From NCBI GenBank assembly GCA_041483195.1, contig JBGPFC010000019.1:2853-66852 (forward strand): a stretch of 64,000 bases of DNA. The letters run 5' to 3'. Under the pieces are notes generated by a model. That model was given only the letters and a program-made list of their open reading frames with translations. It had not been told where the DNA came from and did no database searches. Within the stretch, counting starts at the first letter, position 1. Each line of letters starts with the position of its first letter. The translations under genes and the position numbers were made by a program. Shown here piece after piece: positions 23,703 to 33,010 of this stretch. The stretch is from Candidatus Eiseniibacteriota bacterium (lineage in GTDB: Bacteria; Eisenbacteria; RBG-16-71-46).

Positions 23703-25898
23703 ATGGCGGACCGTGATGGGGTGGGACGGCGGGCTTGGGGCGCCGCGTGCGACGGACTCTTCCGCTCGCGCGCGGCCGGTCTGTCCGTGGCCACCGTGTT
23801 CGCCGCCATCGCGCTGCTCTTCGCCTCTGGAATTCCGCCGGGCGCCGCACCCGCGAACGCCGCGCCCGACAACGCGACCTGCCTCACCTGCCACGCTTCG
23901 CCCGACATGGGCAAGGCGGCCGTGGACACGCTCGCGATCCACGCTTCGGTCCACGCGGGCCTCGCGTGCTCGAGCTGCCACGCGGGCGTCACCGACATCC
24001 CGCACGCCGAGAAGCTTCCGCGCGTGCGCTGCGAATCGTGTCACGGCGCGGTCGCGAGCGCGCTCGCGCGGAGCGTGCACGGCGCGGCGGGTGCGGTCCG
24101 CTGCACCGACTGCCACGGCACGCACACGATCCGTCCCGCGAAGCGCACGTCGCTCGAGCTGTGCGGCCGCTGCCACGCGAACCAGAGCGCCGACTACCAG
24201 GCCAGCGTCCACGGGGTCGCCCTCGCGAACGGCGATCGCGACGCATCGACCTGCGCCGACTGCCACGGCGTCGTGCACTCGATCCGCGCCCATGCCGACT
24301 CGACGTCCACCGTCAGCCGCGGCCGGCTGGCCGCGACCTGCGGCCGCTGTCACGCCGATCGCGCGCTGATGGCGAAGCGCGGGATCACCATTCCCGAGGC
24401 CTACCAGCTCTTCCGCCGGAGCGTGCACGGCCGCTCGAAGCGCGCCGACGCCGCGGTGTGCTCGGACTGCCACGCGAGCCACCGGCTGCTCCGCGCGAAC
24501 GACCCCGCTTCGTCGATCTATCGCGCGAACATCCCCGCCACCTGCGGGCGTTGCCATCGCGCGCAGGACGAGAAGTACTCGGAGGGCGTGCACGGCACGG
24601 CGCTCGCCCGCGGCGTCACCGCCGCGCCGGTGTGCACCGACTGCCATGGCGAGCACCTGATCCGCGGGCCGAAGGACATCGATTCGCCGGTCGCGAGCGG
24701 GAACGTGAGCGAGACCTGCTCGCGCTGCCACGAGGCGACCGGCATTCGCGAGACCTACGGGCTCCCGGCGGGCCGGCTCTCGACCTACCGCGACAGCTTC
24801 CACGGGCTCGCGGCGCGCGGCGGCTCGCCGGTGGTCGCGAACTGCGCGAGCTGCCACGGCTACCACGACATTCTTCCGTCGAGCGATCCGCGTTCCGCGA
24901 TCTCTCCGGCGCGGCTGCCCACGACCTGCGGGCGCTGCCATCCGGGCGCCGGCGCGCGCTTCGCGATGGGCCGCGTGCACGTCGCCATGACCACGCGCGA
25001 CCAGCCGCTGCTGTTCTGGGTGCGTCGCGCCTATCTCGTGCTGATCGTGCTCACCATCGGCGGGATGACCCTCCACCAGGCGCTCGATTTCGGCTCGAAG
25101 CTGCGGCGTCATCTGTCGGAGCATCTCGGGCAGCTCACGCCGCACACCGACGCGATGAAACGCTGGTACGTCCGCCTCACGCCGTTCGAGCGCGTGCAGC
25201 ACGTGCTGCTGGCGGCGAGCTTCTTCACGCTGGTCTATACCGGCTTCGCGCTCAAGTTCCCGGAGGCCTGGCCGTTCGCATGGCTGGCGCGCCTCGAGGG
25301 CGGATACCGCTGGCGAAGCGTGATCCATCGCGGCGCCGCGGTCGCGATGGTGGCCGCCTCGCTGACGCACCTCGCGTACCTGGCGACGCGCCGCGGCCGC
25401 GAGGCGCTGCGCGCGATGCTGCCCGCCCCGGCCGACGCGACTCAGGCGATCGCGAACCTCCTGTATCTCGCGGGGCTGCGGCGTGCCCCGCCCCAGTTCG
25501 ACCGTTTCAGCTACATCGAGAAGGCCGAGTACTGGGCGCTGATCTGGGGAACCGTGGTCATGAGCGCGACCGGTCTCGTGCTATGGTTCGAGAACGCATC
25601 CTTGCAGTGGCTCAACAAGTGGGTGCTCGATCTCGCGACGGTGGTCCACTACTACGAGGCGTGGCTCGCGTTCCTCGCGATCGTCGTGTGGCACCTGTAC
25701 CAGGTCATGATGAACCCCGACGTGTACCCGATGAACTGGACGTGGCTGACGGGCCGCATTTCCGAGCAGCAGCTGCGCCACGAGCATCCGGCCGAATGGG
25801 CGCGCATGGCGGCGGCGGAAGCCGCGGCCGCGCTCCCCGAAAACCCGCCCGCGGCGGAGGGCGCGCCGCCCCACCCGGAGGAAAGGAACGAACCATGA
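23703..25898 (+). CDS. CbcL-like fusion: 13-heme c-type cytochrome domain plus C-terminal membrane cytochrome b domain
   Basis: Thirteen CxxCH motifs counted. The C-terminal TM region is homologous to that of 19662-22508 (FERVQHVLLAASFF, VIHRGAAVAMV, VVHYYEAWLAFLAIVVWHLYQV). The ATG at 23703 is the first plausible start before the hydrophobic leader. Confidence 0.8.
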   Translation: MADRDGVGRRAWGAACDGLFRSRAAGLSVATVFAAIALLFASGIPPGAAPANAAPDNATCLTCHASPDMGKAAVDTLAIHASVHAGLACSSCHAGVTDIPHAEKLPRVRCESCHGAVASALARSVHGAAGAVRCTDCHGTHTIRPAKRTSLELCGRCHANQSADYQASVHGVALANGDRDASTCADCHGVVHSIRAHADSTSTVSRGRLAATCGRCHADRALMAKRGITIPEAYQLFRRSVHGRSKRADAAVCSDCHASHRLLRANDPASSIYRANIPATCGRCHRAQDEKYSEGVHGTALARGVTAAPVCTDCHGEHLIRGPKDIDSPVASGNVSETCSRCHEATGIRETYGLPAGRLSTYRDSFHGLAARGGSPVVANCASCHGYHDILPSSDPRSAISPARLPTTCGRCHPGAGARFAMGRVHVAMTTRDQPLLFWVRRAYLVLIVLTIGGMTLHQALDFGSKLRRHLSEHLGQLTPHTDAMKRWYVRLTPFERVQHVLLAASFFTLVYTGFALKFPEAWPFAWLARLEGGYRWRSVIHRGAAVAMVAASLTHLAYLATRRGREALRAMLPAPADATQAIANLLYLAGLRRAPPQFDRFSYIEKAEYWALIWGTVVMSATGLVLWFENASLQWLNKWVLDLATVVHYYEAWLAFLAIVVWHLYQVMMNPDVYPMNWTWLTGRISEQQLRHEHPAEWARMAAAEAAAALPENPPAAEGAPPHPEERNEP

Positions 25899-26650
25899 CG
25901 ACCTGTCGCGCGCTGTTCGCGGGGACCCTCGCGATCGCCATGCTGTCCCTGATTTCCGCCTGCCAGACCACGCCGCGGCCGTGGGCGTCGCCGGAATCGC
26001 TTCAGAAGGGCCAGCAGGCGTTCCTCTCGTACTGCGCGATGTGTCACGGCGACGGGGGCGACGGCGACGGCGAGCTCGCCTCCACGCTCCAGCAATCCGG
26101 CGTGGTGGTCGCGCGGCTCAGCAGCGCGGCGAGCATGCAGAAGCTCGGATACCTGGGCGTGCGCAAGGTGATCGTTCAGGGCGGCGCGCACACCGGTCGT
26201 TCGAACATCATGCCCGCCTGGGGCGAGCGCTTGCCAGACGACCTCATCAGCGCCATCGCGGCCTACGTGATGACGCTCTCCGACAAGACGCCGGCCATTC
26301 CGGAGGCCACGGTGCGGAAGTACCTCGCGGCGCCGGCCGGCGTTCCGGACGAAGGCCGCCGCGTGTTCGTGCACTACTGCGCGGCGTGTCACGGCCCGTT
26401 CGGTCGCGGCGACGGCACCTACGCCGAGGCGCTGCGCGTGCAGCACAACATCCGCCCGCGCGATCTCACCGACTCGACCTACCTCGCGCAGAAGACCGAC
26501 GAGCAGCTGTTCGCGACCATCTCGCTGGGCGGGGCGCACGTCGGAAAGTCGAACTTCATGCCGGCCTGGTCAGTGTCGCTCAGCCCCGAGCAGATCAAGA
26601 GCCTCGCCAGCTACATCCGCGAGATCTCGCGCACCTCGCCGCGGCCCTGA
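25895..26650 (+). CDS. periplasmic (lipoprotein-like) diheme c-type cytochrome, paralog of 6012-6785
   Basis: ATGA overlap with the preceding gene. Leader ...MLSLISAC. Two CxxCH motifs (CAMCH, CAACH) with the same GGAHxG(R/K)SN.MPAW motifs as the paralog. Confidence 0.8.
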   Translation: MTTCRALFAGTLAIAMLSLISACQTTPRPWASPESLQKGQQAFLSYCAMCHGDGGDGDGELASTLQQSGVVVARLSSAASMQKLGYLGVRKVIVQGGAHTGRSNIMPAWGERLPDDLISAIAAYVMTLSDKTPAIPEATVRKYLAAPAGVPDEGRRVFVHYCAACHGPFGRGDGTYAEALRVQHNIRPRDLTDSTYLAQKTDEQLFATISLGGAHVGKSNFMPAWSVSLSPEQIKSLASYIREISRTSPRP

Positions 26651-31803: not shown

Positions 31804-33010
31804 CGTCGCCTCCGGGCCCCGATTCCGGCAGCCATAGGATGAAGCCCGCCCCTTCGCCGGGGCGGCTTTCGACCCGGATCCGGCCTCCGTGCCGGGTGAT
31901 GATGCGCTGGCTGATGGAGAGCCCGAGCCCCGTGCCCTGGCCCACCGGCTTGGTCGTGAAGAACGGATCCCAGATGCGATCGAGGTGAGCGGGATCGATG
32001 CCGGGCCCGGTGTCCGTGATCTCGATCGTGACGCCGCCCCCCTCGCGCCGCGTGCGCACCGTGAGCGTCCCGCCCTGCTGCATCGCCTGCACAGCGTTCA
32101 TCATGAGGTTCATGCACACGCCGCGGATGCCGCTCGCTCGCGCCCAGATCTCGGGCAGGTCGGGATCGAGATCCTCCACGCGTTGCACGTTCAGCCTGCG
32201 CATCTCGTAGTCGAGCAGCGAGAACGTGTCCAGCACCGCGCGGTTCACGTCCATCTTGGTCGCGGCCGTCTGATACGGCTGCGCCAGCAGCATGAGCTTG
32301 CGCGTGGTCTCGCTGCAGCGGCGCGCCTCGGTCTCGATCAGCGCCAGCACTTCCGCGGCCTCGGTCACGCCGTCGGCGTCGAACTGGCCGCGCCCGAGCC
32401 AGCGCTCCAGGCTCTCGACGCCCGCCAGCATCGAGGCCAGCGGGTTGTTGATCTCATGGCCGACGCCCGCGGCCAGCAGGCCGAGCGAGGCGAGCCGCTC
32501 GCTGTGCGCGAGCTGGCTCTCGAGCAGGCTGCGCTCCGAGATGTCGCGCCACACCTCGACGATGTGAGTGATCTCGCCGCCCGCGCCCGCGACCGGATTG
32601 AAGCTCACCTCCCAGCGGCGCGGCCGGCCCTCGGCGTCGGGGCGGGTGCGGAGCAGGCGGCGGGCCTGGCGCGAGTCGATCGCCTCGCACGCCGCGCAGC
32701 GATGGCCTTCGCCGCCCGAAACTTGCTCGGGACAATTGAGCGAGTCGTGACAGCTCGAACCCACCAGGCCCGCGCCGCTGATGCCGAAGGCTTCGATGTA
32801 CCGGCGATTGGCGGCCACCACGCGCAGCCCGCGATCGAGCACCACGAGCGCATCGGAGATCGAATCGATCAGCTCGGGGAGGATCGGGCCGACCTGCTGA
32901 AGATCCACGCGGCGCGAGGAATCGGCAGAGATCAGCGGGATGGCGCGGCCGGGCTTGGGTCTGGGGCGGGACGGCTCGCGTTCGCGCTCGGGCACGGAAG
33001 GCAGTGTCAT
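31796..33010 (-). CDS. cytoplasmic PAS-domain sensor histidine kinase with a four-Cys motif in the PAS domain
   Basis: ATG at 33010. PAS-like segment LIDSISDALVVLDRGLRVVAANRRY containing C87-x5-C93-x11-C105-x2-C108. Canonical H-box LAAGVGHEINNPL. N/G boxes MNLMMNAVQA, DTGPGI, GTGLGL. 8-nt overlap with the regulator gene. Confidence 0.85.
   Translation of the reverse strand: MTLPSVPEREREPSRPRPKPGRAIPLISADSSRRVDLQQVGPILPELIDSISDALVVLDRGLRVVAANRRYIEAFGISGAGLVGSSCHDSLNCPEQVSGGEGHRCAACEAIDSRQARRLLRTRPDAEGRPRRWEVSFNPVAGAGGEITHIVEVWRDISERSLLESQLAHSERLASLGLLAAGVGHEINNPLASMLAGVESLERWLGRGQFDADGVTEAAEVLALIETEARRCSETTRKLMLLAQPYQTAATKMDVNRAVLDTFSLLDYEMRRLNVQRVEDLDPDLPEIWARASGIRGVCMNLMMNAVQAMQQGGTLTVRTRREGGGVTIEITDTGPGIDPAHLDRIWDPFFTTKPVGQGTGLGLSISQRIITRHGGRIRVESRPGEGAGFILWLPESGPGGDGA

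Follow-up and report, generated by a model that had tools for sequence, protein, structure and literature searches.

A Rieske/cytochrome b/nonahaem module beside a clade II nos cluster in Candidatus Eiseniibacteriota: a predicted quinol oxidoreductase from a multihaem-associated family

In the present study, we analysed a window of 64,000 nucleotides from Candidatus Eiseniibacteriota bacterium (assembly GCA_041483195.1, contig JBGPFC010000019.1, positions 2,853 to 66,852 of the forward strand). Our subject is a three-gene module on its minus strand, here called module B, which encodes a Rieske iron-sulfur protein, a cytochrome b and a nine-haem (nonahaem) cytochrome c and lies back to back with a nitrous oxide reductase (nos) cluster. 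Gene content places module B in a widespread and conserved family, so far unnamed and uncharacterised, that combines a Rieske protein, a fused b6-like cytochrome b and an anchored cytochrome c of 9-11 haems. Judged from the neighbouring genes in other species, the conserved company of this family is multihaem and porin-cytochrome machinery and not nos. With about even confidence, we read module B as an inducible Rieske/cytochrome b menaquinol:multihaem-cytochrome c oxidoreductase that would feed a periplasmic haem network, and NosZ is at most one client of it. The adjacency to nos appears to be a feature of this lineage and gives no sign of a dedicated feeder.

Results

The cytochrome b has 238 confirmed relatives in species-representative genomes, and the best 80 of these, each with up to 10 kb on either flank, were taken as the module-side sample. 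Loci of relatives are referred to by L-numbers, which stand for module loci (L001, L003, L011, L020 and others) or for nosZ loci (L093, L135). The closest relatives (73-84% identity) belong mostly to metagenome-assembled genomes (MAGs) of Candidatus Eisenbacteria, and those at 54-67% come from Vicinamibacteria and other Acidobacteriota, Thermoanaerobaculia, Gemmatimonadota, Ignavibacteriota, Zixibacteria, Binatia and more. The order Rieske-cytochrome b-multihaem is kept in nearly all 80 loci, the multihaem gene standing first in Gemmatimonadota. Throughout the family, the multihaem subunit carries 9, 10 or 11 haems, counted in the relatives by extension of tblastn matches and by stop-to-stop six-frame scans, and ends in a C-terminal hydrophobic helix.

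All window proteins were compared with the 80 module loci by tblastn. The recurrent neighbours of the module are CbcL-like, 19-haem and 5-haem cytochromes, MtrA/MtrB-like pairs, and a second Rieske/cytochrome b/multihaem module (module A) together with its 18-haem partner. The CbcL-like homolog adjoins the module in at least 15 loci. Module B lies beside MtrA/MtrB-like genes in L020, L021, L029, L041 and L061, and MtrB/PioB-family porins occur near it in the same five loci and in L037. When stop-to-stop open reading frames (ORFs) with at least four CxxCH motifs were counted and the module's own cytochrome was left out, there were 150 in 1267 kb around the module (57/80 loci) against 3 in 736 kb around nosZ (2/80 loci), which is a density about 29-fold higher. 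Clustering of the neighbour proteins of the 80 loci gave no terminal reductase that travels with the module; the minority neighbours were NrfD-like and 4Fe-4S proteins, NapC/NirT-like cytochromes, regulators and Usp proteins. L007, L009 and L012 have, directly before the Rieske gene and about 6.1-9.3 kb upstream of cytochrome b, a gene for a cytochrome c that counts about 1060 aa and about 42 CxxCH motifs.

On the nos side, 80 nosZ loci were taken from metagenomes; 23 of the 80 extend at least 6 kb upstream of nosZ, and in 8 of those the nosZ is at least 75% identical to that of the window. An earlier note on this DNA had proposed module B as a dedicated menaquinol-to-NosZ feeder, and association beyond this genome had been set beforehand as the test of it. 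Essentially none was found: nosZ occurs in 0/80 module loci (within 10 kb on either side) and module B in 0/80 nosZ loci, the 8 close relatives included, so that conserved co-localisation across genomes is lacking and the proposal fails at this point. Only the sister locus L001, the closest relative (84% identity), repeats the arrangement, with the nos-side cytochrome c in the same divergent position, where its contig ends. The nosZ loci share the order cytochrome c-nosZ-nosB-nosD-nosF-(nosL)-cupredoxin-nosY. In L135, a Rieske/cytochrome b pair lies directly upstream of nosZ, and with 28-32% identity to module B and APWY for PEWY it is, by its sequence, a distant relative of module B.

In view of these counts, it is very unlikely that module B is a dedicated menaquinol-to-NosZ complex which replaces NosGH or a nos-linked Qcr complex and is co-regulated with nos. 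Its divergent position next to the cytochrome c-nosZ operon, here and in L001, speaks for such a role, as do conserved sigma54-type boxes at both promoters with the activator gene between them; however, L093 has the regulatory cassette and nos without the module, and the other species sampled have the module without a nearby nosZ. The nos cluster of the window has no quinol dehydrogenase of its own, but the one nos-linked pair that was met, in L135, is no close relative, and the conserved partners of the module are multihaem cytochromes. In Wolinella, N2O respiration of the clade II type requires the housekeeping Rieske/cytochrome bc complex, according to Hein et al. 2017 as cited in PMC11409646. 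This requirement makes a contribution of module B to the supply of NosZ biochemically reasonable, and nothing shows dedication.

The G+C content of the window is about 70%; hence, genes were picked by codon statistics and then checked against Pfam and NCBIfam. The genes which the earlier note had listed, from the kinase to the nonahaem cytochrome with the nos cluster divergent from them, are all present, with coordinates exact or a few bases off (Table 1). In the 143-aa Rieske subunit, the ligand motifs CTHLGC...CACH are complete and include the disulfide Cys pair. In the cytochrome b, a single polypeptide joins a b6-like N-terminal half to a C-terminal half that resembles subunit IV. The four axial His of haems bL and bH (helices B and D) and the Qo motif PEWY (IRPEWYF) are shared by the window protein and every module B ortholog aligned, and the subunit IV domain is present. 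Its best solved relative is cytochrome b6 (N-terminal half, E 7e-53), and alignment to cytochrome b6 places a Trp where b6f has the Cys of haem ci. Among 38 nine-haem orthologs of the nonahaem subunit, all nine CxxCH motifs and 7 extra His are invariant and 2 Met are 97% conserved, which suggests seven bis-His and two His/Met haems; against solved structures, this subunit gave a single weak and uninformative match (6i5b, E 3e-5). The Rieske, cytochrome b and nonahaem genes overlap by 4 nt at each junction, and in the 54-nt gap from the pseudo-receiver end to the Rieske start no terminator-like site was reported.

Table 1. Positions in the window of module B, its regulatory cassette, the adjoining nos genes and other respiratory genes
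Feature	Position	Strand	Basis or remark
10-haem MtrA-like cytochrome and MtrB/PioB-family porin	8240-11318	+	Porin E 6e-83; directly upstream of module A
19-haem and 5-haem cytochromes	19662-23317		
CbcL-like fusion of 13-haem cytochrome c and dihaem b561/FdnI-type domain	23703-25898	+	Pfam Ni_hydr_CYTB, multihaem families
Dihaem class I (c4/CcoP-like) lipoprotein cytochrome c	25895-26650	+	Pfam Cytochrome_CBB3 x2
Nonahaem cytochrome c, 440 aa	26735-28057	-	9 CxxCH, signal peptide, C-terminal transmembrane anchor, multihaem Pfam families
Cytochrome b, 358 aa	28054-29130	-	Pfam Cytochrome_B E 4e-45, Cytochrom_B_C E 4e-11
Rieske [2Fe-2S] subunit, 143 aa	29127-29558	-	Pfam Rieske E 2e-15; RRQFL twin-arginine leader, membrane anchor
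Pseudo-receiver, CheY-like fold	29613-30113 (ATG) or 29613-30065 (GTG)	-	Pfam Response_reg E 0.002, below cutoff
Non-coding gap, about 330 nt	30114-30444		Between activator and pseudo-receiver
Sigma54-type -24/-12 element CGGCTCGGGGCTTGCA	30252-30267	-	GG-N10-GC, before the pseudo-receiver/Rieske operon
Palindrome CTGTCAGGTTGACAG, candidate activator-binding site	30365-30379		About 113 nt upstream of the -24/-12 box
NtrC-type sigma54 activator	30445-31803	-	Response_reg E 2e-29, Sigma54_activat E 1e-69, HTH_8 E 5e-14
Sensor histidine kinase	31796-32995 (ORF could reach 33160, start uncertain)	-	Pfam PAS, HisKA, HATPase_c
Nos-side sigma54-type -24/-12 element CGGCATACGCGTTGCA	33384-33399	+	About 100 nt upstream of the cytochrome c-nosZ operon
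Monohaem lipoprotein cytochrome c	33499-33981	+	Pfam; divergent from kinase
nosZ, Sec-type clade II	33978-35909	+	NCBIfam TIGR04246, 877 bits vs cutoff 625
cbb3 oxidase	42471-45485		Downstream of nos and usp

Module B stands behind a regulatory cassette of kinase, activator and pseudo-receiver with the parts of a sigma54 two-component operon, namely an activator with REC, AAA+ and Fis-type HTH domains and a GG-N10-GC box upstream of the operon, the promoter being a prediction. The activator matches NCBIfam AtoC/NtrC-like models with scores under their equivalog cutoffs. The PAS domain of the kinase has four Cys (C-x5-C-x12-17-C-x2-C) that are kept in the orthologs of L001, L003 and L093, a pattern that fits a metal- or Fe-S-based redox or O2 sensor. 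In the window pseudo-receiver and 8 aligned orthologs, the equivalents of the receiver residues D12/D13, D57 and K109 are replaced (the phospho-acceptor D57 by E, A or G); since neither the acidic pocket nor this Asp nor the conserved Lys is kept, the protein is a true pseudo-receiver.

Window-wide counts of the sigma54 consensus and of mismatched palindromes did not exceed the shuffled expectation; therefore, only position and conservation in relatives carry weight. The GG-N10-GC pattern of the CGGCTCGGGGCTTGCA box, with TTGCA, is kept in L001 and L011 and is weaker in L003, and L093 has GGGCACATGGCTTGCT at the equivalent position before its pseudo-receiver. The palindrome CTGTCAGGTTGACAG is perfect, is the sole zero-mismatch match in the window, and is kept in L001 and L011 and similar in L093. 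On the nos side, L001 has the same 15-nt block of CGGCATACGCGTTGCA, in an intergenic stretch whose alignment shows 66% identity overall, and about 110 nt upstream of this box L001 has CTGTCAGACTGTCAG, of which the window has a degenerate version.

The cassette of L093 (kinase 62%, activator 74% and pseudo-receiver 35% identical) has its own CTGACAGCCTGACAA site and is divergent from usp-cytochrome c-nosZ, and no module follows it. In L003 and L011, the cassette comes with the module and without nos. Being found with the module alone, with nos alone or with both, the cassette is a unit in its own right, and since it faces both in the lineage of the window, co-regulation of module B and nos is plausible there. 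The earlier note's claim that the adjacent kinase co-regulates the two gains partial support from the sigma54 boxes at both divergent promoters, kept in L001, from the conserved four-Cys PAS domain and from this distribution of the cassette.

All five copies of CTGTCAG/CTGACAG in the 64 kb (7651, 7954, 30365, 41784 and 41804) lie within or at the edge of intergenic regions, which make up 12% of the window; the operons behind these regions are those of module B, MtrA/MtrB-module A and usp-cbb3. Sigma54-like GG-N10-GC boxes also stand before MtrA/MtrB-module A (7927-7942) and usp-cbb3 (41915-41930). There are thus hints of a single regulon spanning several respiratory operons.

Between modules A and B, the subunit pairs share 33%, 32% and 37% identity; as all three subunits are paralogous, the whole module was duplicated. 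Several Eisenbacteria encode both A and B, each as a copy of its own, and so do a Thermoanaerobaculia MAG (L055) and a Binatia MAG (L068). Separate copies in these three lineages point to an old duplication that predates them, lateral transfer being another possibility. The earlier note had seen in module A a diverged copy of module B that was recruited to the MtrAB conduit. The paralogy of all three subunits agrees with the first half of this claim; as to recruitment, module B too adjoins MtrA/MtrB-like genes in the five loci named above. In the cytochrome b of module A (11847-12980, plus strand), both haem bH ligands are gone, with Arg for the helix B His and Thr for the helix D His, and PPWY replaces PEWY. 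The window module A shares these changes with the five Eisenbacteria-group copies in the alignment; in L055 and L068, the helix D His is retained. Because the axial ligands of bH are lost, the module A protein is predicted to be a single-haem cytochrome b that has no Qi site and runs no Q-cycle.

The nos cluster is of clade II: its NosZ scores above the Sec-dependent cutoff, nosB (as defined in PMC11409646) comes next, and the same order recurs in most nosZ loci that extend past nosZ. Downstream of nosZ lie nosB (a 210-aa membrane protein, named by position), nosD, nosF, nosL, a cupredoxin-like gene, nosY and NnrS, followed by usp and a cbb3 oxidase cluster with assembly genes. The earlier note had found no nosR, nosX or nosGH in the cluster; in agreement, no NosR, NosX/ApbE or NosG/H-like protein was seen among the Pfam-scanned window genes (genes 1-5, 14, 15 and a few small ORFs were unscanned), and the sole NapH-like protein is CcoG, inside the cco cluster. 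The NosZ leader (33978-34070, plus strand) ends in the lipobox-like LPGC and that of the preceding cytochrome c in VVGC, so both may be membrane-tethered lipoproteins. The cupredoxin-like gene (39372-39782, plus strand) in the nosL-nosY interval had no family model above threshold, and it holds the same position in many related nos clusters at 40-54% identity. In the cbb3 cluster, CcoN and CcoO are fused (733 aa, COX1 and FixO; 42471-44672, plus strand), and ccoGH-DsbD-like-ccoI-ccoS follow, which makes the set complete.

The dihaem cytochrome c gene (Table 1) lies in the interval covered by the earlier note and is unmentioned in its text. It is convergent with module B, and its start overlaps the stop of the upstream 13-haem/b561 gene; homologs adjoin the module in L001 and L003 and stand at the end of the nos cluster in L093. 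This pairing of a low-potential-type quinol oxidase (CbcL-like) with a c4-like carrier (23703-26650, plus strand) is unusual. The MtrA-like/MtrB-PioB pair upstream of module A is, by its families, a porin-cytochrome conduit. Between module A and a LysE-like gene lies a low-GC island (16054-18363, minus strand; 58% vs about 70%) with one 769-aa ORF that has the P-loop GRRGSGKT, weak AAA_16/NACHT matches and a C-terminal region similar to PDC-M36A, a candidate defence protein (E 2e-15). The ORF is probably a STAND-like defence gene that was acquired horizontally. Rfam had no match over the whole window.

Discussion

According to the reading that we favour, quinol would be oxidised by module B at a canonical Qo site made of PEWY, the Rieske cluster and haem bL. 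One electron would pass from the Rieske cluster to the membrane-anchored nine-haem subunit, and from there to a periplasmic multihaem network which in the window may include the CbcL-like protein, the 5-, 18- and 19-haem cytochromes and the MtrA/MtrB-type outer-membrane conduit. The presence of haems bL and bH together would permit a Q-cycle. Transcription, with the pseudo-receiver as the first gene, would start at the sigma54 promoter and be driven by the adjacent NtrC-type activator under the four-Cys PAS kinase, which probably senses O2 or redox state. As the same cassette faces nos here, the module and nos are probably switched on together, and NosZ may be one of several clients of the network, supplied by way of its own lipoprotein cytochrome c and not by a dedicated partner.

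Several points weigh against this interpretation. The organism is uncultured, and module B is known here from its genes alone. The potentials of multihaem cytochromes are usually low, which is awkward after a Rieske cluster, so the electron flow could run the opposite way. Furthermore, no other quinol:cytochrome c oxidoreductase for nos or cbb3 was seen in the window, which leaves room for a role in feeding NosZ, and the co-occurrence of module and nosZ was judged within 10 kb on either side in each genome, pairing at the level of the genome lying beyond that range. Sigma54 control as a trait of the whole family was considered and rejected: with up to 2 mismatches allowed within 600 nt upstream of the Rieske gene, 6/77 loci had a box (0.13 sites per kb vs 0.08 in the background), and 8/64 loci had one upstream of nosZ, near chance. 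Since the boxes are not enriched across the family, the regulation described is lineage-specific.

Among known systems, the closest in parts is Cbc6/ExtMNOPQ of Geobacter, and the closest in regulatory logic is BccR-CbcBA. In Cbc6/Ext of the metal-respiring Geobacter sulfurreducens (GSU2932-2935 and neighbours), ExtO is the Rieske protein (about 14 kDa), ExtP a b6-like cytochrome b and ExtQ a membrane protein that resembles subunit IV, and cytochromes with 10 and 12 haems accompany them; the cluster is present in all Geobacter genomes examined and has been predicted to be a quinol:cytochrome c oxidoreductase, with no assigned role (PMC2825233, PMC5877670, PMC13591261). Like module B, it unites a Rieske protein, a b6-like cytochrome b and large multihaem cytochromes in one conserved cluster. 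The N-terminal half of the window cytochrome b matches the NCBIfam ExtP model (E 6e-57), and at 193 bits vs a cutoff of 290 it falls short of an ExtP/Cbc6 equivalog. ExtP and ExtQ are separate proteins, whereas in module B the b and subunit IV parts are fused; moreover, module B has a single downstream nine-haem subunit with a C-terminal anchor and stands behind a sigma54 cassette with a pseudo-receiver. The ExtI porin, the rhodanese-like genes and the selenoprotein cytochrome of the ext cluster were not seen in the window.

The Geobacter BccR-CbcBA system has a sigma54 promoter, is induced upon redox change and includes a C-terminally anchored multihaem subunit (bioRxiv 10.1101/2021.04.15.440034). 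As in module B, a REC-AAA-HTH activator adjoins a sigma54 operon in which a gene resembling a response regulator stands together with genes for a b-type membrane subunit of a quinol oxidase and for a multihaem cytochrome c anchored at its C-terminus. However, CbcB is a dihaem b protein of another family (with a thiosulfate-reductase-like annotation) that has neither a Rieske partner nor Qo/Qi sites, and CbcA has 7 haems. BccR is divergent and no cognate kinase is described beside it, whereas the kinase and activator of module B are co-directional with their target operon.

With cytochrome b6f and QcrABC, module B shares the b6-type His pairs of helices B and D, PEWY and the Rieske disulfide Cys pair. 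It differs from them in lacking the haem-ci Cys, in the fusion of the two halves and in the nine-haem subunit that replaces cytochrome f, c1 or the dihaem QcrC. A cytochrome b6f proper is not encoded, given the Trp for Cys, the fused gene, the missing PetA and the score of 214 vs 325 bits with the NCBIfam cytochrome b6 model. The delivery modules of clade II nos clusters (NosGH/NosC1C2 in Wolinella and the L135 pair) likewise stand beside nos, but module B has no conserved linkage to nosZ and is as distant from the L135 pair as stated above. In anammox bacteria, there are Rieske/cytochrome b cores with multihaem c-type subunits in place of the monohaem c1. By their description, these are set apart from module B by lineage, by their other subunits and by NAD(P) oxidoreductase-like or HAO-like partners. 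Both multihaem subunits and Rieske/cytochrome b complexes are treated in PMC8862662 and PMC9325076.

A further explanation is that module B serves as a general complex III equivalent for all high-potential acceptors, cbb3 (42471-45485) and NosZ included, with class I cytochromes c as carriers, for instance the dihaem protein at 25895-26650. We consider this unlikely, although several features would suit it. The Qo and Qi ligands are canonical and the two conserved Met suggest His/Met haems able to take Rieske electrons, but 9-11 haems are unnecessary for a simple c1-type role. Both cbb3 and nos are encoded in the window, where no other bc-type complex or alternative complex III is visible, and a homolog of the dihaem cytochrome c lies within the L093 nos cluster; yet in other species the module has neither cbb3 nor nos genes beside it, and a conventional bc complex or alternative complex III may lie elsewhere in the genome. 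In addition, an inducible sigma54 promoter is not of the housekeeping type.

The MtrA/MtrB-type conduit also raises the prospect of a flow in reverse, in which electrons from donors outside the cell (Fe(II), reduced humics or a cathode) would be taken in by way of the conduit and the multihaem cytochromes, and the Rieske/cytochrome b complex would push some of them uphill to quinones while the rest pass to cbb3 or NosZ. In Acidithiobacillus ferrooxidans, the bc1 complex PetI runs uphill to the quinone pool, and there are two Pet operons. The two differentiated bc-type modules of the window may be seen as analogous to these two operons. The MtrB/PioB porin (E 6e-83) with its 10-haem partner in the window, the porins by the module in six loci and the high-potential cbb3 and NosZ encoded nearby are in line with such an uptake hub, but the direction of flow is unreadable from sequence. 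Furthermore, the window offers no carbon-fixation context, and no Cyc2-type or other Fe(II)-oxidation marker turned up, although no search was aimed at such markers. We hold this alternative to be highly doubtful.

A broader and distinctly improbable idea is that the regulatory cassette joins the clade II NosZ, the Rieske/cytochrome b-nonahaem complex, the MtrA/MtrB conduit and cbb3 in one sigma54 regulon. N2O reduction would then be coupled to extracellular electron exchange (e.g. with Fe(II), reduced humics or a cathode as donor), and the nonahaem complex would act as a hub in the membrane that links NosZ with the multihaem network and the quinone pool. The inducible menaquinol:multihaem-cytochrome c oxidoreductase described at the outset is the reading that we retain.

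Conclusion

The clade II N2O reducers are the main biological N2O sink in soils, and the electron route to their NosZ is partly known. Adjacency to nos is a poor guide in the case of module B; hence, we advise against its annotation as a nos accessory. The present analysis delimits a widespread unnamed family, which in Acidobacteriota, Eisenbacteria, Ignavibacteriota, Gemmatimonadota and other groups is surrounded by multihaem and porin-cytochrome genes. As far as part of the source tells, a survey of the inner-membrane quinol oxidases that serve extracellular electron transfer (PMC6295460) apparently does not cover this family. If module B and its relatives are indeed a Q-cycle-capable entry to multihaem networks, estimates of how much energy these phyla, which are abundant in soils and sediments, gain from metal and humic respiration would change.

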